From Candidatus Iainarchaeum sp. (lineage in GTDB: Archaea > Iainarchaeota > Iainarchaeia > Iainarchaeales > DTGL01), in assembly GCA_026413945.1 (NCBI GenBank), contig JAOAJX010000006.1, forward strand, positions 1 to 64,000: a stretch of DNA of 64,000 bases. Reading direction: 5' to 3'. How positions within the stretch are numbered: the stretch's first letter is position 1; each line of letters opens with the position of its first letter. A program made the position numbers and the translations under genes. Shown one piece after another: positions 16,950 through 64,000 of this stretch. The notes under the pieces were generated by a model. It saw only the letters and a program-made list of their open reading frames with translations, ran no database searches and was not told the DNA's origin.

Positions 16950-18689
16950 ATGCATTTAGAAGCAGATTCTACTCTGTGTGAAGCGTGCAAAGAAAAAGCC
17001 TGTATGAACTTTTGCCCCAAATCTTTAAGTATTAACGCACTGAAATGCAAGCATTGCAAACCAGAGGAAGCGCGATGCGCCTTGGTTTGTAGAAAAAATG
17101 CTTTTTACAAGGTTACTGAAAACATAGTTTCGATTGACAAAGAGCTTTGCGATGGCTGTGGCGCATGCATGAAAGCATGCTCTTACAGAGCAATAACCAT
17201 TGTTGAAGGAAAGGCAAGCAAATGTGACCTTTGTGCAGAGCATGGCTTTGAGATTGTTTGTGCAAGGGAATGCCCAAAAGGTGCAATAAAAATTGAAAAA
17301 AGTGATAGGGAGTGCTTGCTAACAGAAAAGCTTCTCGGTTGGAAGTGCTTTAGCATTGATAAAAAAATAAGGAAGGTTTATAGAAAAAGGCCAAAAATAG
17401 TAGAAGCTGAGGGTTACATTTGGTACATTTTGCCTTTGCCAGAGCTTTCATCTGAAGAAGCAAACCTTGTTAAGGATGTTTTGGATGGCTTTCAGAACAA
17501 TGGCTATGGCCAAAAAGACATTGAAAAAGCACTCACGCATTACTGCTTTGACAATGAAATATTGCTTGATGATAACCAAAAAAGCTACTTAGTTAAACTG
17601 CTCAAAAGCCTTGCAAATGGCTTTGGTCCTATTGACGAGCTTCTTAGTGATGAAGAGCTTGAGGAAATAGCGCTTACTGGAATTGGCATAGAAAAGCCGC
17701 TCAAGGTATTTCACCAGACCTTTGGTTGGTGCAACATAAACCTTTGCTTTACAGATGAAGAAACAGTACGCAACCTTGTGAATAAGATGCTGAGAAACAA
17801 CGAGAGGCGCCTTACGCTTAATAGCCCTTGCGTCAATGGCATGTTACCTGACGGCTCAAGAATAAATGCTACGCTGCCGCCAGTTTCAGTTGGTGAGCCA
17901 ACATTCACTATAAGAAAGTTTAATGTTAAGAGATTCACTCCTGAGGAGCTTGTGAGAAACAAAACATTTACCTTGGAGCTAATGGCTTTTTTGAATTGTG
18001 TAATGCAAACCGATTGCTCAATAATGGTTGCAGGAAACACTGGAAGTGGAAAAACAACAAGCTTAAATGCAATATTCAATTTTGTGCCAAAAGATGAAAG
18101 GGTTGTAATAATTGAGGAAACCCCTGAGCTCCAGATACCTCACAAGCATGCTGTAAAGCTTTCAGTTTGTAGGGAAAAAAATGTAGGGATGCACAAGCTT
18201 ATAGAAAACTCTCTCCGAATGCGCCCAGACAGAATTGTGGTCAGCGAAATACGAAATAGTGCAGAGGCAAAAGCATTCATTAATACGTTGCTAGCAGGCC
18301 AAGGAAAGGGCAGTTACACGACATTCCACGCAAACTCCGCAGAAGACACTGTGAAGCGCCTTGAATTTTTGGGAGTTAAAAGAGTTGATATTGGCTCAAT
18401 AGACCTTGTGCTTGTGCAAAGGCGCTGGCCTGTTATGAAAAATGGTAGAAGCATAGAACAGCGCAGGATAGTGGAAGTATCAGAACTTGAAAACAACTCT
18501 GAGAATATAATATACAGCTATGATTACAAAAAAGGCATACTGAAAAAAAACTCTGAAAGCAAAAAAGTTTTTGAAAAGATTGAAAGGACTTTTGGCGAAA
18601 GCGCAAATGCAGTCGTAAGAAGATTCTCTAAGAGCATGAGAAAAAAAATCTTTTTTGGTGACAAAAGTGCCATTGCCCAGCTTCATTGA
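16950..18689 (+). CDS. CpaF/TadA/VirB11-family secretion ATPase fused to an N-terminal four-cluster [4Fe-4S] ferredoxin domain
   Basis: Walker A AGNTGSGKTT, Asp box IEETPEL, Walker B RPDRIVVSEIR, His box TFHANS, DGSRINA..PP..TIRKF. Residues 10-108 carry 16 Cys in four groups, including CDGCGACMKAC and KCDLC..CARECP. Confidence 0.9.
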   Translation: MHLEADSTLCEACKEKACMNFCPKSLSINALKCKHCKPEEARCALVCRKNAFYKVTENIVSIDKELCDGCGACMKACSYRAITIVEGKASKCDLCAEHGFEIVCARECPKGAIKIEKSDRECLLTEKLLGWKCFSIDKKIRKVYRKRPKIVEAEGYIWYILPLPELSSEEANLVKDVLDGFQNNGYGQKDIEKALTHYCFDNEILLDDNQKSYLVKLLKSLANGFGPIDELLSDEELEEIALTGIGIEKPLKVFHQTFGWCNINLCFTDEETVRNLVNKMLRNNERRLTLNSPCVNGMLPDGSRINATLPPVSVGEPTFTIRKFNVKRFTPEELVRNKTFTLELMAFLNCVMQTDCSIMVAGNTGSGKTTSLNAIFNFVPKDERVVIIEETPELQIPHKHAVKLSVCREKNVGMHKLIENSLRMRPDRIVVSEIRNSAEAKAFINTLLAGQGKGSYTTFHANSAEDTVKRLEFLGVKRVDIGSIDLVLVQRRWPVMKNGRSIEQRRIVEVSELENNSENIIYSYDYKKGILKKNSESKKVFEKIERTFGESANAVVRRFSKSMRKKIFFGDKSAIAQLH

Positions 18690-19254
18690 AAGATATGTGT
18701 GTATGAGAAAGGCAAAGTACCTTGAGGCATCACTTGCAATTTTTGTGCTTTCGCTGAGAACAAAGCTACTTGCTGGCCTAACGCTTGAAACAGCAATATT
18801 GAAGCTAAGGGATGAACTTTCAGGGGAACTGAAGGAAGAGCTATCAAAAATAATAGGTGAGGTAGATAAAGGTAAAGATATAAGCGATGCTTTTGCTCAT
18901 GCAGCAACACAGACATGTTCTATTGAATTTAAAAAGGTTTTAAGCCATTTGAACCAGATTGCCCAGAATGGCTACTCGAGAAAAAACGATACGCTGAAGC
19001 TCTTGAGCAAGGAGCTTAGTTCAATGCAGCTTGCAAAGATACGCAATTACTCTTCAAAGCTAGCAATTATAAGCCTTATATTCATTGCGAGCACGGTTGT
19101 ACTGCCAGCGCTTTGGCTTGCTTTTGTCGTGATGGGCTCGGCTTTTTTTGCGCTTGATATTGAGCCTTTGCATGTGCTTGTAGTAACAACAGTTGCATTC
19201 CCTATGATTGGCTCTGTTGTTCTGCTTTATATGAAGGAGGTTGCGCCAATATGA
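18655..19254 (+). CDS. Type II secretion system F / TadB-like membrane platform protein
   Basis: Directly after the ATPase; L.AGLTLETAI...GELKEEL.KI..EVDKG.DISDAF pattern and two C-terminal TM helices. Confidence 0.75.
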   Translation: MVTKVPLPSFIERYVCMRKAKYLEASLAIFVLSLRTKLLAGLTLETAILKLRDELSGELKEELSKIIGEVDKGKDISDAFAHAATQTCSIEFKKVLSHLNQIAQNGYSRKNDTLKLLSKELSSMQLAKIRNYSSKLAIISLIFIASTVVLPALWLAFVVMGSAFFALDIEPLHVLVVTTVAFPMIGSVVLLYMKEVAPI

Positions 19255-20162
19255 TTCAAGCGCTAACCTTCTTTTTTCCAGAACACAAGATTAGGGGCTT
19301 TGGAACGCTCATCCACAATGAGTTAAACATAAGCATTGAAAAAGCAGATAGCATAGCAAAAATTTTTGCAGCAATAGCTTCAGTGATTTCGGCATTCTTT
19401 GTTTTTATTTCAGCAGGGGATACAGCAATAATAATTGCTACTTTCATTTTGTCCTTCTTGGGCTTTTACTTTTTTGCTATGGCTTTTATCGGCTTTTTCG
19501 CTGAAAAAAAATTGATTGAAAAGGAGAACAGCTGTGCTGAAGCACTAATGCATGCAAGCCTACTTCCTGAAGGCACACCAGTTGAGAAAATCATAAGCTA
19601 TTTAGGCAATGGAAATTATGCCATTGCCAAAGAGTTTCAAAAGGCAGAGGATGAAATAAACAAAGGGGCAAGCCCAAACAAAGCACTCTCTAGAATATAC
19701 AAAAGATGCAAAAAAGCAAATATAGCCCACATAGTACAGCTGCTAAAATTAGCAGATGTTTCTGGCAGCATAGGTCCAGAAACCTTTAGAGAATCAGCTA
19801 CCGGAATGCTTGAAGAAAAAGCACTTATGCGTGAAAGGGCAGCAATGCTTACAATACAAAAAGTTACAGTGATCTTAAGCAGCATGCTTCTTGTGCCTTT
19901 TATACTTGGCATCCTTTGCAGCATAACAAGCAGCTTTGACTTAAGCTACCTTGAGATTCTTGGCATGGATAAGCCAAACCAAAGAAAGCTTGTAGCTGCT
20001 TCAGCAATGGCAAGCATCACGTATGTACTTGAATTAGCATTGATTTCAGCGGTTTTTTTGGGCATGCAAGATGGAAACCTTAAAAAATCTGTTTTTTATC
20101 TTGCCTTTATAGCGCCTATTGCGCTCCTAATTTTTCTAAATGCCTCTGCCTTAATGGCATGA
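19251..20162 (+). CDS. Type II secretion system F / TadC-like membrane platform protein
   Basis: N-terminal TM pair, YAIAKEFQKAEDEINKGASPNKAL, C-terminal TMs with DGNLKK; ATGA overlap. Confidence 0.78.
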   Translation: MIQALTFFFPEHKIRGFGTLIHNELNISIEKADSIAKIFAAIASVISAFFVFISAGDTAIIIATFILSFLGFYFFAMAFIGFFAEKKLIEKENSCAEALMHASLLPEGTPVEKIISYLGNGNYAIAKEFQKAEDEINKGASPNKALSRIYKRCKKANIAHIVQLLKLADVSGSIGPETFRESATGMLEEKALMRERAAMLTIQKVTVILSSMLLVPFILGILCSITSSFDLSYLEILGMDKPNQRKLVAASAMASITYVLELALISAVFLGMQDGNLKKSVFYLAFIAPIALLIFLNASALMA

Positions 20163-20234: not shown

Positions 20235-23200
20235 ATGTTATTAGAAATGATGTTTGATTATTTTCGTTTACCGAAGCAGTTAGCAAAAGATATTTCCTTG
20301 GTTTTCTTAGTGTGGATTTTGATAAATTATCAGTTTGTTTTGCCGGTGTACGCCGCAGATGAGTCATCTGATGAAAAAAAAGCAGCACCAATAAGAGATA
20401 AGTTTACATGTGAAATGGGGCAGCTTAGCAAAGAGGATTCTTTCAAGATTTTAAAGCTACTTGCAGAAGGCCTTACCGGCTCAAAGATAGCAAGTTCCAC
20501 GAAACAGGATACTAACAAAGACCGTGAGAAGCTCGAGAATCCAACCATAATAATACCAATAGATGCTAATAAAGGTGAAGCGGCAAAGGTGCCTGTTGCT
20601 GATGAAAAGTTTAACATTTCTGAAGCAATACATCTCACAAATGACTGGATTTCAGGCCCTTATGCCTTTGGTCTTGTTCTTACAGATACGTTGCGTGTTG
20701 GTAGATGCAACAACCTTGAAGATAAAAACATACCTTGCCCGGTGGTTGATAAGCAGCTAACTCTAAGAAATTCTGGTGAGGGCATAGTTAGCGACTTTAA
20801 ACCTCTTACTGACATTCTAGCCATTAAGGGCAAAAAGCCAGAAGATTTTACAGAAGAGGAATACAAGGAAATAAGGGAAAAACTTGGCCTGCCGGAAGAT
20901 GCTCAAGATGAATTAGAGATGCGGATTGCTGCAAGCGATTTTAATGAAATAAATATTCAGGCTTATAAAAGAGCTCAAGGCAAGATGATACCTAACTCAA
21001 TATTAACTTATACTTTCAATGCGTATGGGCAAACAACCTGTAATAGCTCAGACTGTACAATAACAATATACTCGCTTTTTGACAAGTACTATAACAATTG
21101 GTTTTCCATGGAGATGACATTTTCCACTTTCGGGCCGACTCTTGTTGGCCAAGCAAGAAAGCTATTTCAACACCTCGGTGTAAGCAAAACATTTCTTTTT
21201 AGGCTATCAGAAACAGAACTTGCAGACAGATTAAGGCGGAGCCTTTACAATTCGGATGCACTTTTTGGGAGGCGTCTTAGGGCAAGAATGAAGATGCGCG
21301 CCCAACAATACCCTGAAGTAGCAAAATTTACAAAAGAACTCACAGAAGGAAAAGGTTGGACTTCGGGTTATGAGCTTCTTACAAACCCATCAATACCGCG
21401 AACAGTCTCAAGTGACTGGCTCGGCGCAGGCGGATGGATGAGCAAAATAGATGATCCTATTGTGAAGCGAGAGCTTTATAGGCAGGCAAAAGATATTGAA
21501 AAATTCACCAAAACACAAAGGGCTTTTTTAAGGGAGGCCAAGGAAAACTATCTCAAGGCTGCAAAGAGTGGCTTAGGCTCACCACAAGAAATGGCAGCCA
21601 GGGTTGAATATGGAAAGACGATAAGTGAAGCAATGCTTGATTACACAGATACACTAAGTTTAGATGTACCGGGTTGGTTTTCAAAATATTCGCCAGTAGG
21701 CTTATATACACAGAACATAAAAGGGGTAGGTGATGTATCACCTGCTTGGATTGCTGGTGATTCTGCGTATATGTATGATATGCTAAAAAAATATTCAATA
21801 GATGGTCACTTTGGTGGTGGTTGGCCCGGTAACGCATATCATACTGAAGGAAAAAACTTAGTGCTTTATAGGTTAGTTCCTGAAGAGGCTAAAATAAAAG
21901 ATATAACATTCGACGAGTTACAAAAAGGTTGGTTTAAGTATGAAGGCTTCTTTGTCCAGACAGACTCTGGCGTATTGCTACCGGTAAATGAAACAAGCCT
22001 AAACACACTTAAAACCCAGATGACAGGAGCTAAGCCGCTATTCTCATTAAATGAGGTGAAAAAGAAACCAACTGGTAGGTTAACCCCAGAAGACTTCGCA
22101 ACTAAACTTATGGAAACAAAAAATACTTTACAGTTAGAAATCTTTGCTCCGGAAAGTGCAGAAAAAATAACACAGATCCTACAAGCAAGGGGTTTCGAGC
22201 TAAGGCGTTATTCTAGCTTACTTGATAGGGCAATCGCTTATCAAGATAACTTTATACATAATTATATGAGGCCAGCTGGTGGACTTAAATGGACTGCCCT
22301 CTTTAACATGTATTGGGTTGGGAAGCGCGGCCTTAATCAGAAGTTTGCCTCAGCATATATGCTGCCAGATACATGGCGTGAGGTGCGTTGGCCTCTTGGC
22401 CAAGGTGAAATTTATGATGATGCCTTTATTGACTTTTTCTCACACGAAGGATCTGATCAAGGAGATATGTTCAGGCGCCTTATGAGTTTAATGCCTTGGG
22501 AGTGGCTAATGCTAAATACATTTGAGAAGTTCGAACCTGTAAAAAATATGTACGAACGCCTTACTGGGAGCAATGTAAGGACAAGTGTTGAAAATCTGGC
22601 TATATATGCAACAACGCCGCAGGATTGCACAAATTGTGGCATACTCATGCGCTCAGGCATGGATTATAGGTATTATTTCACAAACTTTTATTCTGGCAGA
22701 AAAATTGATTCATACATTCTTGAGGACGCTGTTTCAGAGAATGTAAAAAACTGGGGTTCAACGCTTATAATGTTCTCTCGCCACACAGATCTTGAAGGCA
22801 AAGAAAAGAATGTGAGTGGAAGCTCGAGGATAAGCCTGGAAGAAGCGGTAAAGAAGAAGAAAACATGCGCAGATGCTGTCGAAGAGGCAACAATGGGCAT
22901 TTCAAAGTATATTGGAATAGGCACATTATTTAAGCCACACACCATAGGTGGTGCCCTAGCTTTAACCGATTCTTTAGGCTATGCGCTCTTTGGATTTGGT
23001 GCCGTTTTCGGAACTTTGGCACAGCAGCTTGTAATAGCTCCAAAACTTCAGGATTGCGTTGATGTTGATGGCGGCTATTATACGCACATATTTGTGCCCG
23101 CTAAAAAAGAGGATAAAGGCAAGGCAGCAAGCCAGCTTTCTGCTGAAACCGCAATGAATAGCATCAGGTCATTTGTTGATTCCCTTACCTCTATGTTTAA

Positions 23201-24812
23201 ATCAAATTCAAATTCATATACAGCAAAAGCGGCAACAGAGCTTGATGAGAAAGTAAAAAAGTTCACAAGCGGGGCAAAACAAGACAACATTGTACAGGCA
23301 AATGTGCACCTTGAAGGCCCAACTACGGGAATACTCCAAGGTGAAGAGCTTTTTTCCTTTTGGTTTAAGGGCGAGTCAACACCAACAACATACAAAACAG
23401 AGGGACAAAAAGTGATTGCTTCAGATAATAACCGAGCAATCATTGTGGACTTCAAGAACGGAAGAATTCTCTTAGTGGATCAGAATGGCAACATTTTAGA
23501 TGTTATAACTGAAAACGATGTGCCTTCTCGCCTGATTTCTACAAACACAGATATACCTGCTGAAGAGATTCCAAAGCGCTATACGCTTGTAGGTTTGCCA
23601 GACTCAAATGACCCAATGTTTGAGATGAACATAGACTCTGAGCTTATTGTGCTCATCCCTGAAATTTCCGAATGCATATTGAAAGGCATAGAGTATCAAA
23701 GCGGCTTGGAATACAAACAAGCAGACTTAAAGCGCCTTAATCTTACTGATGTCTTTGGAAAAGTGCTTGCAATCACTACAGACACGCACACGATAAAGGC
23801 AGTAGCGGAGCAAAAAAGGATTGTCGCTGAGGGAATGCCAAGAACAATGGTTGAAAGCCAAAATGCAAAAGCAATAGTTCTTGCAAACAGGGAAACAAAA
23901 ATTAAAGATGGCAAAGAGGAGTATGTTGGCTTATTTGAGTCTGTGCAGTTTGAAAATGGTGTAATACTTTACAAGCCAGACACTCACGAGCTCATTATTT
24001 GGCTTAAAAGAAACAAGCAGGCAGAGCTCTCGGGTAATGATGTGGGTGGAATTAAGCTAAGCCCTGCGCAAGTTGTTGACCCTGAAACAAATTGCCCTGT
24101 GCCAGCAGTATCATTACAAGCAATTCCAAAGGAAACTGAAGGCATAGGCGCTTACCGTGTTGAGCAGTTCAATAAATCATTAGCTGCCTCTGGGCCTTTC
24201 AATGTATTGGAAACACCAACAAGAAGATTTGTGTTCTTCGCAAAATACGAGCCAGATGGCAAATGCTCGGGCCTAGAATGCTGCAAGAATTACATAAGGG
24301 TTATAAACAAGGAAACTGGAGAAGTTTATGAGGCGCCCATTGAAACATTCCAGGTAAGACCTGATGGCATATACATAAAGGATGGAAAAGGTAACGAGCA
24401 CAATATAAAGATCACCGCAGATGATGGAAAACCTATGCTTCAATATAATAACTATCCGCCGGAGCCACTTACAAGTGCACAAGGCCCAAACGGCTCATTT
24501 TGGTATGATCCAACTGCAAACAAATGGTATGCAGAAAATGCACAGCTTTTGCCATTGCTTGAAGCATTTAGGGCCGGAGCCTTGACTCAAGCTGGTGCAG
24601 GCGGAGTCGTAACAAAGGCAGGTGACAATATTTTGAATGTATCAGGCCTTGGCTCATCAGGTGGCTTCAATCTACCATCTTTGCCAGAAGACGTGGTTTT
24701 TCTAGTAGTTTACCTTTCTTTGTTACTTACTACAATAACCACAACACGTACCTTTTTAAGTAGAAATAGCAAAAAAAACTTCTCAATGCAAAAGCAAAAA
24801 GATTTTAAATAA
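20235..24812 (+). CDS. Large (1525 aa) surface protein of unknown function with a C-terminal LPSLPE-TM tail
   Basis: Long ORF; N-terminal signal (..VLPVYA); paired Cys; internal hydrophobic Gly/Ala-rich segment; C-terminal GGFNLPSLPED + TM + basic tail. Confidence 0.75.
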   Translation: MLLEMMFDYFRLPKQLAKDISLVFLVWILINYQFVLPVYAADESSDEKKAAPIRDKFTCEMGQLSKEDSFKILKLLAEGLTGSKIASSTKQDTNKDREKLENPTIIIPIDANKGEAAKVPVADEKFNISEAIHLTNDWISGPYAFGLVLTDTLRVGRCNNLEDKNIPCPVVDKQLTLRNSGEGIVSDFKPLTDILAIKGKKPEDFTEEEYKEIREKLGLPEDAQDELEMRIAASDFNEINIQAYKRAQGKMIPNSILTYTFNAYGQTTCNSSDCTITIYSLFDKYYNNWFSMEMTFSTFGPTLVGQARKLFQHLGVSKTFLFRLSETELADRLRRSLYNSDALFGRRLRARMKMRAQQYPEVAKFTKELTEGKGWTSGYELLTNPSIPRTVSSDWLGAGGWMSKIDDPIVKRELYRQAKDIEKFTKTQRAFLREAKENYLKAAKSGLGSPQEMAARVEYGKTISEAMLDYTDTLSLDVPGWFSKYSPVGLYTQNIKGVGDVSPAWIAGDSAYMYDMLKKYSIDGHFGGGWPGNAYHTEGKNLVLYRLVPEEAKIKDITFDELQKGWFKYEGFFVQTDSGVLLPVNETSLNTLKTQMTGAKPLFSLNEVKKKPTGRLTPEDFATKLMETKNTLQLEIFAPESAEKITQILQARGFELRRYSSLLDRAIAYQDNFIHNYMRPAGGLKWTALFNMYWVGKRGLNQKFASAYMLPDTWREVRWPLGQGEIYDDAFIDFFSHEGSDQGDMFRRLMSLMPWEWLMLNTFEKFEPVKNMYERLTGSNVRTSVENLAIYATTPQDCTNCGILMRSGMDYRYYFTNFYSGRKIDSYILEDAVSENVKNWGSTLIMFSRHTDLEGKEKNVSGSSRISLEEAVKKKKTCADAVEEATMGISKYIGIGTLFKPHTIGGALALTDSLGYALFGFGAVFGTLAQQLVIAPKLQDCVDVDGGYYTHIFVPAKKEDKGKAASQLSAETAMNSIRSFVDSLTSMFKSNSNSYTAKAATELDEKVKKFTSGAKQDNIVQANVHLEGPTTGILQGEELFSFWFKGESTPTTYKTEGQKVIASDNNRAIIVDFKNGRILLVDQNGNILDVITENDVPSRLISTNTDIPAEEIPKRYTLVGLPDSNDPMFEMNIDSELIVLIPEISECILKGIEYQSGLEYKQADLKRLNLTDVFGKVLAITTDTHTIKAVAEQKRIVAEGMPRTMVESQNAKAIVLANRETKIKDGKEEYVGLFESVQFENGVILYKPDTHELIIWLKRNKQAELSGNDVGGIKLSPAQVVDPETNCPVPAVSLQAIPKETEGIGAYRVEQFNKSLAASGPFNVLETPTRRFVFFAKYEPDGKCSGLECCKNYIRVINKETGEVYEAPIETFQVRPDGIYIKDGKGNEHNIKITADDGKPMLQYNNYPPEPLTSAQGPNGSFWYDPTANKWYAENAQLLPLLEAFRAGALTQAGAGGVVTKAGDNILNVSGLGSSGGFNLPSLPEDVVFLVVYLSLLLTTITTTRTFLSRNSKKNFSMQKQKDFK

Positions 24813-33514: not shown

Positions 33515-33526
33515 AGTCGTGGTTAT

Positions 33527-35889: not shown

Positions 35890-36336
35890 ATGATGAACAA
35901 AGGTTATTTTTGGCCTTTTAGGTTGTTGATTGCAACAATATTTGCGCTTGCGATGCTCACAATAATAATTTCTGCTTTGGAGTACTTCAAAAATGTGGAA
36001 AGATCAACAAGCTACGAGAGGTTTGAAAACGGCTTCAAAAATGCGCTATATGCTGCAAGCAGCGATCCAAGTTATGGCTTGGCAAAAGAGAAAAACATCA
36101 CAATTGTTGGAATAATAACAGCAGGCCAATTTTCAGAAAAATACAAAATACCCTCAGAATGCATAGAGTTTCAGGCAATAAGCGGCATGCTAATAAAGCT
36201 CTCAGAAAACAAGCGAAGGGTTATCATTGAGAAGGAAATAACGATTGATGTTTATTTCCATTGCATACGATACAACGTTGGAGAATGCGAAATAAAATGC
36301 TACATATCCTTTGGCAAAGCGCCAAAAATTGGTTAA
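35890..36336 (+). CDS. Class III signal peptide (pilin-like) protein
   Basis: MMNKG-YFWPFRLLIATIFALAMLTIII; globular part resembles 36413 (IPSECIEF vs LEKEQICL). Confidence 0.68.
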   Translation: MMNKGYFWPFRLLIATIFALAMLTIIISALEYFKNVERSTSYERFENGFKNALYAASSDPSYGLAKEKNITIVGIITAGQFSEKYKIPSECIEFQAISGMLIKLSENKRRVIIEKEITIDVYFHCIRYNVGECEIKCYISFGKAPKIG

Positions 36337-55029: not shown

Positions 55030-58000
55030 ATGGGAATAATGAGTTCTTTGCGTGAATTTTATTACCATTTAGAGGATCGCTACTATGAAGTAATAGACAA
55101 AATAAGCACTAAAATACCCATAAACAAATTAACAGATGCTATTGACAAAGTTTTTCCTTCATTTATTCTTTTTATAATACTTTTATTTGTACTTTTAGCA
55201 GCTTTAGTGCTTTTTTTAATTCCATCCGTGGTAATTCCAAAAGATGTCGCATTAAATGTTTTTGTACAGTATCAAGACAGGTTTGGTGCAAAAAGACCTC
55301 TTGAGGGCGCAAAAATTGAGATAATCGTTGGTGAAAAGGTTCATAGGATAACAACATCAGAAAATGGAAAAATTCAGCCAATAATCCTCAAACCAAAAAG
55401 TGAAGTAATACTGCGCGTTTCAAAGGATGGTTTTAAGCCAAACCCGGCTGAGAAAAGCATAACGATGGAGGATGAAAATGCACAGGTAAGCTTTTTGCTT
55501 ACAGAGATAATAAAGACACAGAGCATTAGCTTCAAGATTATAGATGAAAATACAAAAAGCCCAATAGTGAAGCGCGTATCATTATCATTTGAGTGCTCAA
55601 ACAAAAAAGCAAATCCGCCAAAAGCTGCTGAAAAATACACTGATTATAGCGGCAGTATCCAAATAGATGATGTTGAGATTGACTGCTTACCATTGCTAGT
55701 AACGGTAAATGCGCAGGAGTACGAAACAGCAGAAAATGTCAGTGTTAGAGATGGTACCACAATAGCTTTGAGGAAAGTTGTAGAGCTTAAGCCGGTAGAA
55801 CAAAAGGGCAGGCTAATTGTAAATGTCACCTTTAGAGGTGAGTTGCCAGAAGAGAATATTATTGTTGATCTTGAAAAGGATACTGGTGCAGCCCCAATTT
55901 TTATGGAATCTGGAGTTACTAGCAGTGGCCAAGTTGTTTTTGAAGTCTTGCCTGGTAAATACCGAGTAAGAACAAAGGCAACTGCAAATTATAGTGTTGC
56001 GGAATCACAATTTATAAATGTTGGTGCAAACGAGAATAGGTCAATCAGCTTAGAAATTCAGAAGATAATAATTGGCAGTATAAAGATACAAGTTTTTGAT
56101 AAAGACAACTCAAAGCCATTAGCAAATGCCAGAGTAACATTAATTAAAGATAATACTCAGTTTGCATGCGCAGATACAAATGCTGAAGGCAGAGCTGATT
56201 TCCATCTATCCAAAGACGAAAATTTCTTGCTTGTCGTTGATCATCCTGATTACTGTGTTTATCGCCTTAGAGATGTGAGAAAATCGGATAGCATTCTTAG
56301 AATAGGCCTTGTAAAATACACTCAAGATTGTGGCGGCTCCATATCAGTAAAGGTTATCGACTTTGAAAAGCGTGCCATTTCAGGTGCAAAGGTTGCTGCC
56401 TTTGATGAAAACGGTAGCAGCCTTGGGCTAAAAGAGTTGATAACAGACATAAACGGCATCGCGGTATTCAAAGGGTTTTATCTCGGAAGATACAAATTCT
56501 TCGCATATAAGGGCTTTGGAAGCAGCTGGAGCGATATTATTGAGTTCTCGCCAAGATTGGGCACTGAACATGAAGCAGTGATCGTATTAAGCATCCCTAA
56601 GGCAACTCTAAAACTGAAAGTAACTAATGATGGTGGTGAAGGCCTTCCATTTAGTGATGTTATTGTAAAAGATGCATACACTGATAAAGTAATAAAGGGG
56701 CCACTAAAAATTGAAAATATTGGTGGAGATATTGACATAAACATAGATGCCGGCTTTTCTTTCTATTTGTATATAAACAACCCAGATTACGCACCATACA
56801 TAAGCGAAAGAATAGTGCTTAAGCCAGAAGAGCAGAGGCAAATGCATGTAAAGCTTGAGCCAAAGAGAATAAGTGGCGAAATAGCCATTGAATTCTTAGG
56901 CCTTTTTAAAGATGGGCAAAATGCTGTTGTGCTTGCAGCTGGAAAAGAATACATGGCAAAGTTTAAGGTTTCTGTCCCAGAATCTGCACAATATGATAAA
57001 TTCGGGGTGCATCTACGAGTTGGAAAATACAATATAATGGAAAAAGACTTCTTGTTCATAAAAGAAATTTATGCTGGCGGAAACCCAAAAATTATTCGGG
57101 GCATTTCATATAGCCCAGAGCAAGGCATGGGTCATGATTTCAGTCTATTGAGCACTGAAAGTGCAAAATGGGTTAATCTTGAATGGACAAGATTGAGTGG
57201 TGGCACCATTTATGTTTACGCAAAAGTTAAGGTAAAAGAATCCGCATCCTCTGAAGAGCTAAAAGTAATGTGGCGTGCTTGGGGCCTTAGAAAAGGTTTA
57301 ATGGTAAGAGATCCTGAAGATATGGCTTTAGGCAATGCTATGAGCGATGCAGAGCTTTATGCGAAAACGTATGAGCGTATTTATAATGTAGGAGAAGAAA
57401 AGCTTTGCACAGATAAGTGGTGCACTGTTTTCAAAGCACTTGATATTGAGGAAAATGTTGCAACATATATTGATGGAAGCTATACTGCAAAAGTTGGAAA
57501 ACCTTACAAGCTATACTTTAGTATAGCAAACAGTAGCAAATTTGAAACTGACACTTTTACAAATGTCAAGCTGAAGATATTTAATACTGAAAAAAACATA
57601 ACCTTTGGAAACTACATTGTTTATGGAGAAACGGTTGTTAAAGGCAGTGCTAATGCAAATGAAACACCATACATTGAAGTGGGAAATATAAAGCCAAATA
57701 ATGAAATTCATGGTGAGATAGAATTTTCGCCAAAATCAGGCAAATTTGGAAGCATAAATTTACGCTTGCACGATCCAACAAAGCATGCGCACATATTCGA
57801 AGAAACCATTGCGGTTAGCATAATTGCGGCAAGAAACTTCACGATTGACTTTAAGGTTGGTGAAAGCTTTCAGTCAGAGGCGCCTCTGCTGCCAAGCGGT
57901 GTTGAGAATACAATTATTGCTAGAATAAGGGACAAACAATCTGGGCTAGAAGTGTCGGATGCTATAGTTAAGGTTAAGGACTCTACTGGCAACACTATAA

Positions 58001-61000
58001 TACAAACCTTTACAGGCTCTTTAGGCCTTGCAGAAATAAAGCTTCCTTCGCTCATGCCAGATGAAAAATTAGTGCTTACTGCAGAAAAGCCAGATTATGA
58101 AGAAGCAAGGAAAGAAATACGCACTGATGGAAATGTTATTAATCTTGAGCCAGCAGAGATAGGCCTACAGCTTAATGTTTTCACAAAAAGGGAAGACAGC
58201 GTAGTTGTGAGAATCTTAAACAAAACAGCAATGACGCTCAAGCTTAGGGCAATTAAGCTTTCGGGAGAATTCTATGGAATAATTGACGAGCGGAAAGTTA
58301 GGGATTGGCTAGTTGGTGAATATGTAGGCAAGGAGATAGGGCCCAAAGGTAAGTTAGATATCGCACTAAAGGTTTCGCTAAGCGATTATGGAAAAACTAT
58401 TAATGAAGTCAAGAACCTTGAGGGTCTGGTAACAGCAAGCGTCTCCACTTCCTCTGCCTATGGTCACGAGTGGCATGCTGATAGCAAAGTCAAAATCTCT
58501 GTTGGAATAGGCGGTGAAGTTGATGATCCTTCATGCCTTATTGCCAGCATAAAAGAATGGAAAGCAAAAACAAAAAGCAACGAGGTAAGCACTGATTTTT
58601 CTGTTAAAAACAACTGCACTCTCGAAGGAAAGCCTATAGCACTCAAAAACTTAAGTGCAAAAATTGAGCTTAAAGGCAACCGGCTTGGAAGCTATTATGT
58701 GAAAATTGGCGACGTTGGCATAGAACTAAGCAACGCATACCCTAAAATATTGAAAGGAACTTTAAACCCAGAAGAAACTTTACCTGCCCTATTATCATTT
58801 GCTCCAGACGGTGGCATTGTCGGAACTGCAAAGGCAACTATTATAATAACTGCAGAACATTACACTAATAAAGGAAAGCAGACTTTGAGCACAAGCATAG
58901 AGACTGAAATAGAGATGATAAGCTTAGAGAATTGTATAAGATATGATAAAAGTCTCATAAGGATAGTTGATCATAACAGTGCAACTTTGAAAATAGAAAC
59001 TAAAGGTTGCAAGGTGCCAATTGACTTTATGCTTGATACTAAAATTGCGGTTTCTGAAAAAGAGTTTAACATGAAGGCTGATGATAATAAAGAATTAATA
59101 GTAATGCCTTCTCAGGAAGACATACCTGGACAGTATCCAATATATGTGATGGTAAAAAGTGCTAACGACAGCGAATATTCTTTCAACAAGCTTATAAGGG
59201 TAATTATAGAGCCCAAAGGCTGCTTAAAATTGAACCGCTATGAGTTTGACATATACGACGATGCAAATAACCCATATGATGGCTTTGATACTGCTCTTTT
59301 AATGAATGAATGCTATAAAAGGACTGAAAAGATAAGTATAAGCTATGATGAGCGTGACTGGTGGGAAGCAATAAAAACCGGCGCAGTATGGGGCCTTGTA
59401 GGTTTTGTCTATGGTGGCGTAAGGTCACTTGCAGCAGGCAAAACTTTCTTTGGCACAGAAAGGCCTTCTAATGTTTGCAGCAAAGCAGGCTATAAATACT
59501 GTGGAACTAAAAATCTATGCAAAGATGAACGTGTAGTAGTAGTTAATAATGTAACATGCTGTGCATCCGAGTGCATAACAGAAGAAACAGGTCTTCATAA
59601 AGACATTTGCAGCAAAAAAGGGTATAATTACTGTGGCGCAGGCAATTGTGATTTAACACAAGGTAAAGAGACGGTAGTAGATGGGGTTGTATGCTGCACA
59701 GGTAAATGTAAAACAGGAACTATTGAGAAACCTGAAAATATTTGCAAGTCGGCAGGCAAATATTTCTGCAAGACTGACGAAATATGCCCAGATGCAGCAT
59801 ACGTTGTTGTTGGTGATGTAACATGCTGTGGAAAACCATGTGCAAAAGGTCAGATTGCTAAGCCACCGATAACTCAGCCAACAACAGCAACTGTAAAACC
59901 ACCTTCAGGACAAAAAACAGACGAAGAACTATGTAAGGAATATTATCCAAATTCGCGCAAAATTACTTCTCAGGAAGAGTGTCACCCAAATTGTACATTT
60001 AGCAGACAAACTGCGGAAAGGTTAGTGAAATGTTGCAAGAATGACTGCACCGGCACAGAAAAGCCACCAACTGATGGTACAACAGAGGGGGGAAAGCCAC
60101 CCTCTGAAACAGGCGCACCTATTGAAGGACCAACCATACCAGATTGCTACAACACTGAGCTTGAATGTGCTGCAAAGGCATGGAAAAAGACAACTTTGCT
60201 TACTGGTGGTTGTGACTGCTATGCAGCAATAAATTGCATATATGACGAGTTTGGAAAGTGTTATAGGTTTGGGTATTGTAATAACAGCAAATGCACAACT
60301 CAAGGCACGACAGGCCCAAGTGAGCCCGTGGAAGGAGAATGTAAAATAGAGGGTTATTTCTGTAAAGGAACGGTAATGTATTGGAGAGATAGTTGCGGAA
60401 ATGAAGGCATACAGATGGACTGTGCAGAATCTGGTGCCATATGTGAAGCTGGAAATTGTGTATTACAGGAAGGTTGCAAACTTGAAGGTTACTTCTGTCA
60501 AGGAACTGTTTTACATTGGAAAGATAGCTGTGGTAATACGGGTGTTGAGAGAGACTGTGCAGATGCTGGAGGAATATGTCAGAATGGGAATTGTGTTGCT
60601 GCTGAAAGTGGTTGCCAGCGCATTGGTTACTTCTGTCAAGGAACTGTTTTACATTGGAAAGATAGCTGTGGTAATACGGGTGTTGAGAGAGACTGTGCAG
60701 ATGCTGGAGGAATATGTCAGAATGGTAATTGTGTTGCTGCTGAAGGCAGCAGCAGTGGTACCACTCAACCGCCTTCAGGCGATGTTTGTATTGGTTGCCA
60801 TGAAACATTGTCCAAATGCCAAAAAGCTAATGGTGCAGGCATCGCTAGGATATGTGATTGTGAGCTTGCTGTTACATGTGAATATGTGCCATCTTGTTCT
60901 GTAGCAACGCCGTGCTACAGATTCAAGAGCTGTAACAACAGTTTTTGCTCTTTAGGTAGTAGTGGAAGAAAAATGAATGAGGAAGGTATGATAAGAAAGG

Positions 61001-63510
61001 TTGTCGCTGCCAATTCTTCACCAGGCTTTGCAATTGGCTTATTTAGCTTGGAAAGCATCACAAACATCTTTAAAGGAAATATAGACATTTTGGGAAGTTT
61101 GCTGAAGATTGATGATCCATGGACTGGGGCATTGATTGGCTTTATAGCTGGCACACTATACACTTACTGGCAGCAGAGCCAAAATGTTGGCGTGCTCCAG
61201 ATTCCTGTTGCTGTAAGAGACCTAAACATATTGGAATTAAAGCTTCTAATACAAAAAGGTCTTGAAGAAGAGATTGAAAACAAGATCATCGTGGAAAAGG
61301 GCAAAGCCAAGATTGAAAACCCACCAGAAAAGCCATTGGGCATTGAGAAGATTGAAATTGTGTTCAAAAACAATGGCATAAAGCAAGAAGATATATACAA
61401 GCCAATATACCGCATACTAAAAGTGAATGGAAGCAAAATGGAATATCAGACTGACTACAATACAAAGAAAAAGAAAGATGCTGAGGCAATGAAGAAAATG
61501 GAGCCATCAGTGATTGGCAGCGAAGAGTATATACAGAAATTCCATCTGCAGTTCAATTCGTACAAGGCAAAACCAACCAAACCGGAAGTGAGACCTGAAG
61601 TAAGCTGCAAAGTTGGTGGTCTCATTGGCTCAACAGGGAAAGAAGCATTGCCAAAGATTAAGCTTTCATGGAACTGGAATGATATTGCAATTAATGAATG
61701 TGATGAAAGCGGAATCGGCAATTACTGCGATGCAACACAATTTAGCATAGAATTACTTAAGAAGTTAAAAAGAATTGACGAACTGCTCAGAGGCCAGAAA
61801 TTAAAGTGCCCTTCGGCTGAAGGCATACTTAGTGAAAAAACACAGGAATTGGATAATCTTAAGTTGGACGTCGCAGTTACAAAAATAAGAGTTGAAAAAA
61901 GTGGATTTAATGCAACAGTTATTGGAACCATAGCAAGCAATAACAAGCAAGAGATGACAGTAAATGCATTTTTGTCTGTTTCCAAAGGTGGAAATACAAT
62001 AAACTGCCCAGAAGGTGAAAAAGCAGTAAAGGTTATTGACAAAACCGAAGTAACATGCGTCTTTAACAACCTAGAAGAAGGCCTTTATGATGCTATGGTC
62101 AGGATAAGCCCTCAGCTAACAACATGTAGTGGGTCATGCAAAAACGAAAATTTAGGCAATGACACTATAAGCACAAAGTTCGCTGTTGGCACAACAGCAG
62201 GGATATTTGAAAAATGTGAGCCATACAGTACTGAACGCCTCCCAGATTTTATAGCAGCAAACCCAAACAATGCAAGTCTTAAAGAAGCATTATCACTTAC
62301 AAACTTCAACGCATACCTTATGCAAGATGGTTACACCTTGGACTTCAGAAAGGATTTCCATGAGTTCTCAGAAACTAAAGATTTCTTCAGCACCCCTTCT
62401 TGGTACAAAGGAGACATCGGCATAGGCAAGTATTTCTCAAGTGCAGCGCTCTTTGAATTTAAATCTCCATTCCTGAGACCTGAGTCAGGCTACCTACCAG
62501 CAGGCAAGTACAATGTTAGGATAAAAATTGATTATAATAATGGATCTTGGTGCTTGTTTGAAGGCACAATTCCAAATGCAAGAATAGAAGTAATTTTTGA
62601 GCGTTTAGATACGCCCGATCCAGATTCTGTGTTTTATTATATGCCATTTAACGGTCTTGTTGGTGTTGATAGCCAAAACGGGCGGCAGGGCTATGGAATA
62701 AACTTCAGGCAAAAATCAGAGGAAACCATAAAAATAAATGAAGATGTGAAACAGCCAATAAGAACTACCACAATTGCAAACTCAATACCAATACCAAATG
62801 GCTGGGTTGAAGCCCGCGTTGTTAAGGATTTCAAAACATTGCATGGTGATACGCCTGGTGTTGTGCTCGAAATTGAAAAAAGCACAGCTGGCTTGAATAT
62901 GGTATATAGCCCAAGTGTAGCCACACCGCTTTTGCTAAAAGTTAGTGGTGGTGAGAGAAAGAACGCTTATGCATTTTACCAGCTAACAATAAACAACAGA
63001 CCACAGGAAGCCTCAAGTAGCTTGTTCTCATGGAGTGGCCTTGTAAAAGGCTGTAAGGACTTCACTGATGCTGAAGTTACAGAAGCATTTAACTACAGGC
63101 GTGATATACGCGGAGGTGTTGGCAAAACTCAATGTGCAGGCAGCTTTTCAACACATCAGTATGGCGTAGAGTGGTGCAACATTAAGAGGCAAGGAGATGT
63201 ATTCCTGAAAACAATTCTATTCACACCACAAGAGAGTGTAGCTTTGCTCGAAATTGTAAGCTCTTCCGACAAAGCAGTGTTCATAAGCCCAAAAGGCACT
63301 GGCAATCGCATAGAAACCGGTGGCATCGAAGGTGCAACAATTACATCTGTAGAGAAAATACTTAAGCTTGTGGAAGAGAAGAAAGTGTGTGTTGCCGGCC
63401 TTGGAAGCAATAGCAGGGCAACATTCTTCTGGAATCAGCAACAGCTTATAGATGCTGCATTTAAAAACACGATAGAAAGCATACCTTCACAATGCATAAA
63501 AAGTAGCTGA
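55030..63510 (+). CDS. Giant (2826 aa) membrane-anchored surface protein with Cys-rich repeat insert, paralog G3
   Basis: N-terminal helices + TM; carboxypeptidase-regulatory-like repeats; RDPEDMALGN..LYAKTY; YCDATQ; YYMPFNGLVG; C-terminal VCV..FFWN; Cys-rich insert of about 500 aa. Confidence 0.8.
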   Translation: MGIMSSLREFYYHLEDRYYEVIDKISTKIPINKLTDAIDKVFPSFILFIILLFVLLAALVLFLIPSVVIPKDVALNVFVQYQDRFGAKRPLEGAKIEIIVGEKVHRITTSENGKIQPIILKPKSEVILRVSKDGFKPNPAEKSITMEDENAQVSFLLTEIIKTQSISFKIIDENTKSPIVKRVSLSFECSNKKANPPKAAEKYTDYSGSIQIDDVEIDCLPLLVTVNAQEYETAENVSVRDGTTIALRKVVELKPVEQKGRLIVNVTFRGELPEENIIVDLEKDTGAAPIFMESGVTSSGQVVFEVLPGKYRVRTKATANYSVAESQFINVGANENRSISLEIQKIIIGSIKIQVFDKDNSKPLANARVTLIKDNTQFACADTNAEGRADFHLSKDENFLLVVDHPDYCVYRLRDVRKSDSILRIGLVKYTQDCGGSISVKVIDFEKRAISGAKVAAFDENGSSLGLKELITDINGIAVFKGFYLGRYKFFAYKGFGSSWSDIIEFSPRLGTEHEAVIVLSIPKATLKLKVTNDGGEGLPFSDVIVKDAYTDKVIKGPLKIENIGGDIDINIDAGFSFYLYINNPDYAPYISERIVLKPEEQRQMHVKLEPKRISGEIAIEFLGLFKDGQNAVVLAAGKEYMAKFKVSVPESAQYDKFGVHLRVGKYNIMEKDFLFIKEIYAGGNPKIIRGISYSPEQGMGHDFSLLSTESAKWVNLEWTRLSGGTIYVYAKVKVKESASSEELKVMWRAWGLRKGLMVRDPEDMALGNAMSDAELYAKTYERIYNVGEEKLCTDKWCTVFKALDIEENVATYIDGSYTAKVGKPYKLYFSIANSSKFETDTFTNVKLKIFNTEKNITFGNYIVYGETVVKGSANANETPYIEVGNIKPNNEIHGEIEFSPKSGKFGSINLRLHDPTKHAHIFEETIAVSIIAARNFTIDFKVGESFQSEAPLLPSGVENTIIARIRDKQSGLEVSDAIVKVKDSTGNTIIQTFTGSLGLAEIKLPSLMPDEKLVLTAEKPDYEEARKEIRTDGNVINLEPAEIGLQLNVFTKREDSVVVRILNKTAMTLKLRAIKLSGEFYGIIDERKVRDWLVGEYVGKEIGPKGKLDIALKVSLSDYGKTINEVKNLEGLVTASVSTSSAYGHEWHADSKVKISVGIGGEVDDPSCLIASIKEWKAKTKSNEVSTDFSVKNNCTLEGKPIALKNLSAKIELKGNRLGSYYVKIGDVGIELSNAYPKILKGTLNPEETLPALLSFAPDGGIVGTAKATIIITAEHYTNKGKQTLSTSIETEIEMISLENCIRYDKSLIRIVDHNSATLKIETKGCKVPIDFMLDTKIAVSEKEFNMKADDNKELIVMPSQEDIPGQYPIYVMVKSANDSEYSFNKLIRVIIEPKGCLKLNRYEFDIYDDANNPYDGFDTALLMNECYKRTEKISISYDERDWWEAIKTGAVWGLVGFVYGGVRSLAAGKTFFGTERPSNVCSKAGYKYCGTKNLCKDERVVVVNNVTCCASECITEETGLHKDICSKKGYNYCGAGNCDLTQGKETVVDGVVCCTGKCKTGTIEKPENICKSAGKYFCKTDEICPDAAYVVVGDVTCCGKPCAKGQIAKPPITQPTTATVKPPSGQKTDEELCKEYYPNSRKITSQEECHPNCTFSRQTAERLVKCCKNDCTGTEKPPTDGTTEGGKPPSETGAPIEGPTIPDCYNTELECAAKAWKKTTLLTGGCDCYAAINCIYDEFGKCYRFGYCNNSKCTTQGTTGPSEPVEGECKIEGYFCKGTVMYWRDSCGNEGIQMDCAESGAICEAGNCVLQEGCKLEGYFCQGTVLHWKDSCGNTGVERDCADAGGICQNGNCVAAESGCQRIGYFCQGTVLHWKDSCGNTGVERDCADAGGICQNGNCVAAEGSSSGTTQPPSGDVCIGCHETLSKCQKANGAGIARICDCELAVTCEYVPSCSVATPCYRFKSCNNSFCSLGSSGRKMNEEGMIRKVVAANSSPGFAIGLFSLESITNIFKGNIDILGSLLKIDDPWTGALIGFIAGTLYTYWQQSQNVGVLQIPVAVRDLNILELKLLIQKGLEEEIENKIIVEKGKAKIENPPEKPLGIEKIEIVFKNNGIKQEDIYKPIYRILKVNGSKMEYQTDYNTKKKKDAEAMKKMEPSVIGSEEYIQKFHLQFNSYKAKPTKPEVRPEVSCKVGGLIGSTGKEALPKIKLSWNWNDIAINECDESGIGNYCDATQFSIELLKKLKRIDELLRGQKLKCPSAEGILSEKTQELDNLKLDVAVTKIRVEKSGFNATVIGTIASNNKQEMTVNAFLSVSKGGNTINCPEGEKAVKVIDKTEVTCVFNNLEEGLYDAMVRISPQLTTCSGSCKNENLGNDTISTKFAVGTTAGIFEKCEPYSTERLPDFIAANPNNASLKEALSLTNFNAYLMQDGYTLDFRKDFHEFSETKDFFSTPSWYKGDIGIGKYFSSAALFEFKSPFLRPESGYLPAGKYNVRIKIDYNNGSWCLFEGTIPNARIEVIFERLDTPDPDSVFYYMPFNGLVGVDSQNGRQGYGINFRQKSEETIKINEDVKQPIRTTTIANSIPIPNGWVEARVVKDFKTLHGDTPGVVLEIEKSTAGLNMVYSPSVATPLLLKVSGGERKNAYAFYQLTINNRPQEASSSLFSWSGLVKGCKDFTDAEVTEAFNYRRDIRGGVGKTQCAGSFSTHQYGVEWCNIKRQGDVFLKTILFTPQESVALLEIVSSSDKAVFISPKGTGNRIETGGIEGATITSVEKILKLVEEKKVCVAGLGSNSRATFFWNQQQLIDAAFKNTIESIPSQCIKSS
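59473..59842 (+). repeat. Three tandem Cys-rich protein repeats (about 44 aa) in G3
   Basis: (V/I)C(S/K)..G..(Y/F)C....C......V..V.CC...C three times; diverged at DNA level. Confidence 0.75.
60352..60744 (+). repeat. Three tandem 135-138-bp coding repeats in G3
   Basis: GYFC.GTV..W.DSCGN.G...DCA..G.IC..GNCV x3; copies 60487-60606 and 60625-60744 differ at one base. Confidence 0.9.
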
Positions 63511-63533
63511 CGCAATTACTAACAGGGATAGTT

Positions 63534-64000
63534 GTGGAAATCGAAGAAATTGAAGATGAGGAAAATATAATCTATAGGATAAAGGAACGTTACATCGCTT
63601 TTTGTGAAAAAAACAAAATACCAAAAGCACTTCCTATTTTAGTTGCAATAATTCTTATTTTAGCATTAGCTTATATTCTTTTTTTTAGTGCAAATCCGCA
63701 GCCGAAGCCAAAAGAATTTAGCTTAATAGTATATTTTAGAGATGAAAAAGGTGCTCCGGTAAGCGGACTTGATGTTAATGTAACAATAAATGGTGAAAAG
63801 ACACGCAGAAAAACAGACAGCAAAGGAAAAATTTCTATTACCGTGGATGAAAACAGCAATGTAAAGATTTCGTTGAGAGAAACTCTTTACCTTGATGGTG
63901 AATGGACTTTCAAAATAAGCGAGGATACTGAAAGAACAATAACATTAAAGCTAAGGGAAAAGCCACTTGAGAAGATTATAGTTCGCTTTGAAACAAGCAA
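63534..64000 (+). CDS. Probable fourth giant-protein paralog, 5' part only
   Basis: Manual translation from GTG 63534: MEIEEIEDEENIIYRIKERYIAFCEKNKIPKALPILVAIILILALAYILFF..FRDEKGAPVSGLDV..KTDSKGKISI, open to the window end; same E.x.IP + TM + carboxypeptidase-regulatory-like start as G1 and G2. Confidence 0.78.
   Translation, partial: MEIEEIEDEENIIYRIKERYIAFCEKNKIPKALPILVAIILILALAYILFFSANPQPKPKEFSLIVYFRDEKGAPVSGLDVNVTINGEKTRRKTDSKGKISITVDENSNVKISLRETLYLDGEWTFKISEDTERTITLKLREKPLEKIIVRFETS

Follow-up and report, generated by a model that had tools for sequence, protein, structure and literature searches.

Type II secretion system (T2SS) and competence (Com) pseudopili and the Bas system of Sulfolobus combine an ATPase and a platform protein with several different small pilin-like proteins, and a long fiber is not required. 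Among described archaeal type IV pilus loci, those of methanococci include two large DUF2341 proteins that were proposed to be tip adhesins (Makarova et al. 2016, PMC4858521). Here we describe a surface locus in a 64,000-nucleotide stretch of Candidatus Iainarchaeum sp. (contig JAOAJX010000006.1, positions 1 to 64,000; hereafter the window), a genus placed by NCBI in Iainarchaeota, kingdom Nanobdellati, and thus in DPANN. On balance, we favor the reading that this locus specifies type IV filaments along with a partner protein of about 1500 amino acids (aa) anchored by a sortase, to which the order Iainarchaeales has added four giants as adhesin-like fibrils and, as a possible link, a large protein of pilin-like type. 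As judged from its genes, it would be a lineage-specific cell-envelope locus of Iainarchaeia, composed of a core and an add-on. The core, which is kept in sister lineages, consists of an ArtD-like archaeosortase, a 759-aa motor ATPase (ATPase759), a 785-aa platform protein (TadC785), six pilins, a protein with multiple transmembrane (TM) helices and the protein of about 1500 aa. The add-on, found in Iainarchaeales, consists of the giant proteins G1, G2, G3 and G4, a 563-aa pilin-like protein and a protein with four TM helices. The kinds of components are already known, but a search of the literature, supplementary tables (which might list the genes) excepted, returned no published description of the locus or of their combination.

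The resemblance to T2SS, Com and Bas lies in an ATPase and platform accompanied by several small pilin-like proteins. By contrast, the BasE model gives only 66.9 and 117.6 bits for the two motor ATPases of the locus against a cut-off of 1000, and no secretin or binding-protein cargo was identified. In common with the methanococcal loci, the Iainarchaeum locus has an ATPase of the TadA/FlaI family, a TadC-like platform, several proteins with class III-like signals and large non-pilin proteins. It differs from that account in having no DUF2341, a lineage-specific ATPase extension of 300 aa at the N terminus, six conserved pilins along with the 563-aa one, an archaeosortase of its own together with the substrate, and four N-terminally anchored giants. 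The terms "DPANN" and "archaeosortase" occur 0 times each in PMC4858521.

The source genome (G000; 948,649 bases in 21 contigs, 92% complete) carries the locus on its 84.5-kb contig C18, of which the window is the segment G000:C18:1-64000. A hot springs metagenome may be the source of the window. Comparison genomes, which are relatives of G000, are given here as G0xx codes and their families as f-codes. An initial annotation of the window, made from its letters alone, had listed two ATPase and T2SSF modules, about eight proteins with class III-like N termini, an exosortase or archaeosortase, a 1525-aa anchored protein, three to four giant paralogs, hydrophobic Gly-rich segments, an SLT-like domain and variable Cys-rich cassettes, tightly packed between 16950 and 64000. 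Most of these parts, and their linkage, are borne out by our analysis: both motor modules match the expected families, and the giants number four, the last one running past the window. Intergenic gaps within same-strand runs range from -35 to 110 nt. The number of proteins with class III-like N termini is revised to seven, the SLT-like domain is dropped, and the locus extends beyond the window to a boundary at about contig position 71200. The unit from 16950 to 70891 (54 kb) makes up 5.7% of the genome, and G1-G4 alone 3.2%. The density of N-glycosylation sequons is only about twice the genome median, which is not decisive.

ATPase759, the second motor (31235..33514, + strand), is a member of the TadA/FlaI family (Pfam T2SSE, E 2e-20) with the Walker A motif GSRGSGKT at residue 466. 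The first motor, ATPase579 (16950..18689, +; TadA/FlaI/VirB11 family; T2SSE, E 5e-38), has its Walker A motif, GNTGSGKT, at residue 362 and an N-terminal Fer4 match. Both proteins score above the T2SSE cut-off, and the solved structures closest to them are afGspE (2oap), CpaF and FlaI. Both fall under all NCBIfam equivalog cut-offs, including those of FlaI and BasE; the archaellum FlaI equivalog NF058587 gives 132.4 and 192.4 bits, its cut-off being 550, archaellins, FlaH, FlaF and FlaG not having been searched for. The lineage-specific N-terminal extension of ATPase759 is present in 228 protein clusters, and the best 120 of these are 51-97% identical, with names, where given, nearly all of Diapherotrites or Iainarchaeum. 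TadC785 (33527..35884, +) is a polytopic TadC/FlaJ-like protein with 11 hydrophobic segments. Its single T2SSF domain scores 25.2 bits, exactly the cut-off, and a T2SSF match was observed in 10 of 13 orthologs; PDB searches by sequence and profile gave nothing meaningful for TadC785. The first motor is accompanied by two T2SSF half-proteins of 199 and 303 aa (18655-19254 and 19251-20162, +; 46.2 and 28.3 bits), which together are its predicted TadC-like platform in split form. With seven T2SSE-family ATPase genes and nine T2SSF matches in the whole genome, the motor system of the locus is one among several filament systems of G000.

Two further observations concern ATPase759. In G020 (C13:115354-119172) and G038 (C13:5586-9386), its orthologs are interrupted by an insertion of about 500 aa, and database proteins of about 1270 aa that match these interrupted forms carry the intein/homing-endonuclease Pfam families PF14528 and PF14890. 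At G000:C15:21178-28034, a paralogous ATPase that is 41% identical to ATPase759 residues 278-745 adjoins a 630-aa membrane protein and PKD-repeat surface proteins, and counterparts are among the matches listed for six relatives.

Seven proteins of the locus within the window have class III-like N termini, namely six small proteins (A-F) and the 563-aa protein. In each, K/R-G is followed by Q or F and then a hydrophobic helix, and this arrangement is kept in orthologs. Pilin-like A (252 aa; 28471..29229, -) begins with K/R-G-Q-A-x-[IV]-T-D, B (167 aa; 29220..29723, -) has an N terminus of the KKGFLGPIGDDLPSLIPL type, C (226 aa; 29724..30404, -) one of the MLGFTLSKLNLLIL type, and D (183 aa; 30409..30960, -), which starts internally in the open reading frame (ORF) 30409-31128, one of the KGQESAPFELL type. 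On the opposite strand, E (148 aa; 35890..36336, +) has a class III-like N terminus and F (200 aa; 36413..37015, +) the canonical N terminus SKGQAFSTFQLLISAIIALAIL. The 563-aa protein (45834..47525, +), with a class III N terminus of the form K/R-G-F-[NT]-L-F-T-A-L, has orthologs between G1 and G2 in all seven genomes mapped; a PDB search with this family gave nothing meaningful. Across the genome, a crude class III pattern was matched by 38 of 906 ORFs, five of them in the part of the locus between 16950 and 64000. A 198-aa paralog of pilin F is encoded at another locus (G000:C16:39186-39782, -) and has the near-identical N terminus RGQSFSTFQLLISAIIALAIL.

Three matches to Peptidase_A24 above the cut-off were found in G000, all on contig C11, and none within the locus. 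A 178-aa protein with five predicted TM helices (27191..27727, -), which is kept between the pilins and the 1525-aa gene, was considered as a hidden prepilin peptidase and rejected as an A24-type enzyme because its orthologs (G007, G013, G020, G028, G040) have no conserved Asp.

The mini-archaeosortase (216 aa; 37029..37679, +) matches TIGR04178 with 35.1 bits against a cut-off of 23. It scores below every archaeosortase subfamily cut-off; the nearest subfamily is ArtD, at 37.6 bits and far under the cut-off of 125, and with no curated sorting model matching its predicted substrate, the pair lies outside ArtD/PIP-CTERM as presently modeled. The motifs LCTG, FNxxRI and HxxLFR, which supply Cys, Arg and His, are kept in all eight aligned sortase sequences and correspond to active-site residues conserved in archaeosortases (PMC6098224), so that the enzyme looks active by its residues. 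The 1525-aa exported protein (20235..24812, +) has a Sec-type N terminus and, at its C terminus, LPSLPE, a TM helix and a basic tail. The C termini of this protein and of nine out of nine orthologs read [FWL][NS]LPSLP[ET]x, followed by about 20 hydrophobic residues and a basic tail, and LPSLP is invariant in an alignment of the family (A4); variants in sister lineages are LNLPLFPQE (G041) and SLPSLGE (G048). Since the combination of LPSLP, TM helix and basic tail occurs only once in G000, the 1525-aa protein is probably the single substrate of the archaeosortase of the locus.

By analogy to ArtA, the two proteins would thus form a dedicated enzyme-substrate pair with a new sorting signal, including cleavage and lipid anchoring of the substrate. 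They share with ArtA and its PGF-CTERM substrates in Haloferax volcanii (PMC6098224) a polytopic enzyme of the exosortase family, in which Cys, Arg and His are conserved, and a Sec substrate whose signature motif is followed by a TM helix and a basic tail. They differ from that description in the size of the enzyme, in the motif, which is LPSLPE and not PGF, and in having a single substrate in each genome, its gene lying in the locus of the enzyme. The same text, from 2018, places archaeosortases in a subset of Euryarchaeota. Neither the 1525-aa protein nor its last 100 aa matched any NCBIfam model at E<=10, curated C-terminal sorting models included, and searches of Pfam, PDB and the ESM Atlas gave no match, or in the last case no usable match. 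The family comprises 72 clusters among 5.8 billion sequences, none with a Pfam domain, and its named members are all "hypothetical protein," mostly from Diapherotrites. G000 contains a second archaeosortase-family gene (C17:26549-26803). Proteins encoded at C16:53320-55746, C17:60968-62794, C17:63402-65318 and C20:828-3995 end in an acidic/Pro motif (e.g., PEIN), a TM helix and a basic tail, and these PEIN-type surface proteins may be substrates of the second enzyme.

The giants are encoded in tandem on the + strand: G1 (2692 aa; 37750..45828), G2 (2439 aa; 47636..54955), G3 (2826 aa; 55030..63510) and G4 (2296 aa in full), of which 63534..64000 lies in the window and the remainder runs to contig position 70424. 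After G4 follow a 138-aa protein with four TM helices (70475-70891) and a 106-aa protein with a pilin-like N terminus (70888-71208). G2, G3 and G4 have in common a core of 1300-1400 aa at 22-26% identity, and G3 and G4 a C-terminal module of about 700 aa (residues 2100-2826 of G3); the overlap of G1 with the others spans only about 400 aa. G1 itself has a cytoplasmic N-domain, a TM helix, Ig-like domains and a Cys-rich region at residues 1320-2130. In relatives, each of G1-G4 opens with a cytoplasmic N-domain that is conserved and about 45 aa long (consensus YYxLEDKYYxxLDKIxxxIPVYKVIDPIDKxxPSF) and leads into one TM helix, and the first Ig-like domain starts about 10 residues past this helix. 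In G2 and G4 of G000 the N-domain is shortened, and matches to a hidden Markov model (HMM) of the N terminus were confined to G3, G1 and one C17 paralog. The giants carry neither class III nor C-terminal sorting signals. A class III or otherwise cleavable signal was considered and rejected: the leader measures 30-60 aa, only G1 of G000 has a K/R-G site, and past the TM helix there is no small-residue cleavage site that is conserved.

Based on Pfam matches in an alignment of 42 core sequences (A1; CarboxypepD_reg in 36, bMG3 in 15, Big_1 in 9), the core of the giants is predicted to be a string of Ig-like beta-sandwich domains. A profile search against PDB returned only Ig-like fragments (8qox_B at 2.6e-5, transthyretin-like chains), and the ESM Atlas only generic beta-sandwich surface-protein clusters, below 0.9. 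G1 1320-2130 (alignment A2) and the C-terminal module (alignment A3) had no Pfam or PDB match, PDB searches with G3 and G1 as single sequences gave nothing meaningful, and hhalign of G1 1320-2130 with the C-terminal module found only the short common stretch YCDA[TV]Q[FL]S, at 15% probability. In a library of 1.84 billion proteins, the C-terminal module had 828 representatives at E<=0.001, 533 of them at E<=1e-30; in the best 150 matches listed, it stands at the C-terminal end of proteins mostly of 2200-3250 aa, shorter ones being perhaps fragments. G3 contains 57 Cys in residues 1500-1999, and orthologs skip approximately residues 1520-2019, which argues that this Cys-rich insert is a variable, lineage-specific cassette. 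Moderately hydrophobic Gly/Ala-rich segments, with scores of 1.3-1.6 (Kyte-Doolittle, 19-residue window), are present in G1 (2066-2112), G4 (1466-1503) and the 1525-aa protein (907-925), and those of G1 and the 1525-aa protein are found at the same place in orthologs. Two further genes of the giant family stand amid housekeeping genes at G000:C17:3568-13279, on a contig without a T2SSE gene. The first encodes 1685 aa with the N-terminal anchor domain of the giants and four PKD domains, and the second 1549 aa with its own signal peptide and the C-terminal module.

The giants resemble the SPEARE proteins of Nanohaloarchaeota, of which Ca. Nanopetramus SG9 has four genes amounting to 4% of its genome (PMC6642349), in being very long, membrane-anchored and mostly extracellular proteins with adhesion domains, and in claiming a share of several percent in a DPANN genome about 1 Mb in size. 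Unlike SPEARE, G1-G4 and their orthologs have no serine protease, laminin-G or type III restriction-enzyme domains in our Pfam scans, are four paralogs in fixed order beside a pilus operon, and have a cytoplasmic part of only about 45 aa. A likeness in general description exists with Giant1-5 of the bacterium Apilactobacillus kunkeei, which are consecutive genes for giant extracellular surface proteins of 3000-8000 aa (PMC12863079), the gene sets in both cases occupying several percent of a small genome; the part of that article available mentions no pilus or sortase module in A. kunkeei. Neither the giants nor the 1525-aa protein matched a known S-layer family, whereas a 901-aa protein encoded at G000:C15:66417-69125 matches S_layer_C with 40.8 bits (cut-off 23.9) and is likely, by this match, the S-layer protein of the organism; an S-layer role of the giants or the 1525-aa protein is therefore unlikely.

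A match to the G3 core was observed in 40 of 41 genomes, G000 counted, and in 28 of 29 families of the order besides that of G000, usually with three or four tandem giants per genome. With the A1 profile of the giant core, a match was obtained in 139 of the 151 phylum genomes sampled, so that the locus is probably central to how Iainarchaeota cells meet their surroundings. Orthologs of ATPase759, 55-97% identical and some of them fragmentary or split by insertions, were found in 39 of the 41 genomes; in G008 and G026 only paralog-level matches were found. Among the 40 relatives, 21 have an ATPase759 ortholog on the same contig as a giant, within 40 kb of it in 20 of these and 447 kb away in G014. 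In 16 others the two are on different contigs of fragmented assemblies, which are uninformative, and in three one partner was not found.

Gene order was mapped by tblastn of the window proteins on 60-kb stretches of seven genomes, each from a different family and chosen for having both partners on one contig. All seven show a divergent layout of two arms. Arm 1 runs from ATPase759 through TadC785, pilins E, F, D, C, B and A and the 5-TM protein to the 1525-aa protein, although some of the small genes went undetected by tblastn in some genomes, and arm 2 from the archaeosortase through G1, the 563-aa protein, G2, G3 and G4 to the 138-aa protein. The block from ATPase759 to pilin F (31235-37015) is inverted in G000 and, as its strand indicates, also in the congeneric G006; no convincing inverted repeats were found flanking it in G000, and the 1525-aa gene is flipped there too. 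In two families, 10-28 kb of extra DNA is found between the sortase or ATPase and G1 (G025:C4:44546-72500 and G028:C1:654340-664571).

Sister lineages split these arms. The sortase gene stands back-to-back with the ATPase759 ortholog in all four sister-lineage genomes that hold it (G041, G048, G049, G075). In G041 (f33), this pair is accompanied by TadC, pilins and a 1461-aa protein like the 1525-aa one, together with only two giants (2560 and 2082 aa) and a 563-like gene. Besides the sortase (by HMM), ATPase and TadC, G048 (f34; 0.7 Mb, 94% complete) has a set of six small ORFs for pilin-like proteins, one TM protein and, at 1217 aa, a protein of the 1525-aa type, and downstream of the sortase carries methionine aminopeptidase-like and histidyl-tRNA synthetase-like genes, which are similar to G000 genes 7-10 kb past G4. 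From this distribution, the sortase is best assigned to the pilus operon, and the giants arm is best described as an add-on that is near-universal in Iainarchaeales.

It is possible, and we give this real if lesser weight, that the two arms are neighbors only, the pilus-sortase core being one system and the giants independent adhesins or a glycocalyx, Sec-exported and self-anchored by their N-terminal TM helix, with adjacency due to conservative gene order. Several observations count against our preferred reading, and most of them fit this alternative. G048, at 94% completeness, keeps the core without giants, and in family f3 the pieces are scattered, with the ATPase of G014 at 709 kb, giants including G1 at 237-263 kb and sortase-family genes at 74 and 806 kb. 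The giant-family module on C17 is far from any T2SSE gene. The same relatives also keep the order of housekeeping genes past G4 (e.g., DNA polymerase), which makes conserved order alone weak evidence of shared function and perhaps partly inertia. The lack of class III and C-terminal sorting signals on the giants speaks for this alternative. In addition, none of the seven pilin-like proteins matched a Pfam pilin family even at E<=10, and the profile of the 563-aa protein (A5) partially matches larger ORFs at other loci in genomes without giants, for which reason this protein was rejected as a giants-only marker. On the other side, a class III pilin-like gene sits inside the giants arm, 5 nt past G1, the giants arm begins with the sortase gene in seven of seven genomes, and twelve G000 genes from ATPase759 to the 106-aa gene lie on one strand with every gap at most 110 nt. 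Moreover, relatives that have giants and a well-assembled locus all keep the ATPase759 ortholog, except G008 and G026, in which it was not found.

Under the reading that we favor, a filament with a sortase-anchored partner and added giants, gene content, motifs, catalytic residues, conservation and synteny are what the sequences show, and every assembly step, the adhesive role and any target cell are inferred. The pilin-like proteins would be cut after K/R-G by one of the three A24 peptidases encoded elsewhere, and ATPase and platform would assemble them into a pseudopilus-like filament, presumably heteromeric in view of the one-to-one retention of six distinct pilins among the families. The archaeosortase would cut the protein of about 1500 aa at LPSLPE and anchor it to lipid on the surface, as ArtA does with PGF-CTERM substrates. 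The giants would be displayed alongside the filament as long adhesin-like fibrils, and the 563-aa pilin would most likely provide the physical link between them and the filament.

The same pilin set could instead act as a short pseudopilus, a secretion or assembly piston like those of T2SS, Com or the Sulfolobus bindosome, that mounts its cargo, the giants along with the 1525-aa protein, onto the S-layer or through it and is not an adhesive fiber. One-to-one retention of six pilins, even in G048, resembles sets of minor pseudopilins, the BasE, TadA and FlaI models all match both ATPases, if under their cut-offs, and the separate S-layer candidate provides a layer that such cargo would need to pass. 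However, the giants have a membrane anchor of their own and the core persists without them, and we consider a piston distinctly unlikely.

The initial annotation had gone further and interpreted the locus as a pilus-driven machine for host attachment or penetration, or a T2SS-like apparatus, in which the giants would form a heteromeric scaffold with variable parts for host recognition. The parts, the DPANN origin and the linkage of giants to pilus genes on which this interpretation was built are supported, and the refutation proposed with it, giants and pilus module being unlinked in relatives, did not come about; the SLT-like domain is not supported, and the giants are not an obligatory part, given the core without giants in G048. 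In its explicit form, the filament would draw the cell toward a host, whose envelope the giants, equipped with hydrophobic Gly-rich segments, would recognize and breach. Pilus-like systems have been suggested to mediate the contact of DPANN archaea with their hosts (PMC6642349), and general DPANN biology, as outlined in PMC11291902 and PMC6642349, agrees with such a role. In a comparison with G004, the G3 core is 71% and ATPase759 91% identical, which indicates that the giants change faster than the motor, and the Gly/Ala-rich segments of G1 and the 1525-aa protein are conserved. Against this, these segments are only moderately hydrophobic, and no SLT/lysozyme-like family was detected at E<=0.01 in any locus protein or among 97 ortholog segments (42 core, 29 G1-mid and 26 C-terminal-module), nor any lytic, protease, nuclease or pore-forming family in any part or in the scanned ortholog segments. 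There is no known host, and Ca. Iainarchaeum andersonii was argued in a review to be perhaps capable of an independent lifestyle (PMC6349945). We therefore regard a penetration machine as very unlikely.

A broader version of our preferred reading would make the entire 54-kb unit one undescribed surface organelle of Iainarchaeales. It would comprise a six-pilin filament, a collar of the sortase-anchored 1500-aa protein and four different giant fibrils joined through the 563-aa pilin, with fast-evolving Cys-rich ends that recognize partner cells; G1, G4 and the 1500-aa protein would engage the partner membrane by their hydrophobic Gly-rich segments. We think this unlikely, but if true, the organelle would be a cell-cell contact device of a DPANN lineage without a known host. 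Iainarchaeota are uncultivated and may live alone or on a host. The locus offers LPSLPE-CTERM, a sorting signal that is new and testable and that a DPANN lineage pairs with a mini-archaeosortase of its own, then a type IV filament system whose pilins, six in number, are conserved and whose ATPase has a unique N-terminal extension, and three large conserved regions without detectable Pfam or PDB relatives, namely the G1 mid region, the giant C-terminal module and the 1525-aa family. These orphan regions, the sortase pair and the filament parts lend themselves well to structure prediction, and to antibodies or probes by which the cells, and any partners, could be located in enrichments.

The remaining genes of the window are located toward its start. 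Next to the 1525-aa gene, a 512-aa membrane-anchored protein (24854..26392, +) has a TM helix near residue 51 and weak Ig-like matches, and no counterpart was found among the relatives searched. A PAC2-family protein (26417..27169, +; Pfam PAC2, E 4e-37) is syntenic with the first motor. ATPase579, its T2SSF halves and PAC2 lie convergent to the 1525-like gene in eight of nine genomes, the stretch of the ninth, G027, having ended too early. Upstream of the locus, positions 1382-16884 hold a run of about nine genes whose products have Sec-like N termini, five with a C-terminal TM helix and basic tail as well. Pfam finds weak Ig-like domains and one MBG domain in these proteins, which are without the LPSLPE motif, and the run forms a second surface-protein block. 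The N-terminal 4Fe-4S ferredoxin-like domain of ATPase579, a protein with 25 Cys in all, occupies residues 1-120 (window 16950-17300). The tblastn matches to ATPase579 in five further families of the order begin only at residues 113-159, so that the ferredoxin-like domain may be variable among relatives; the match in G041 spans residues 1-564.

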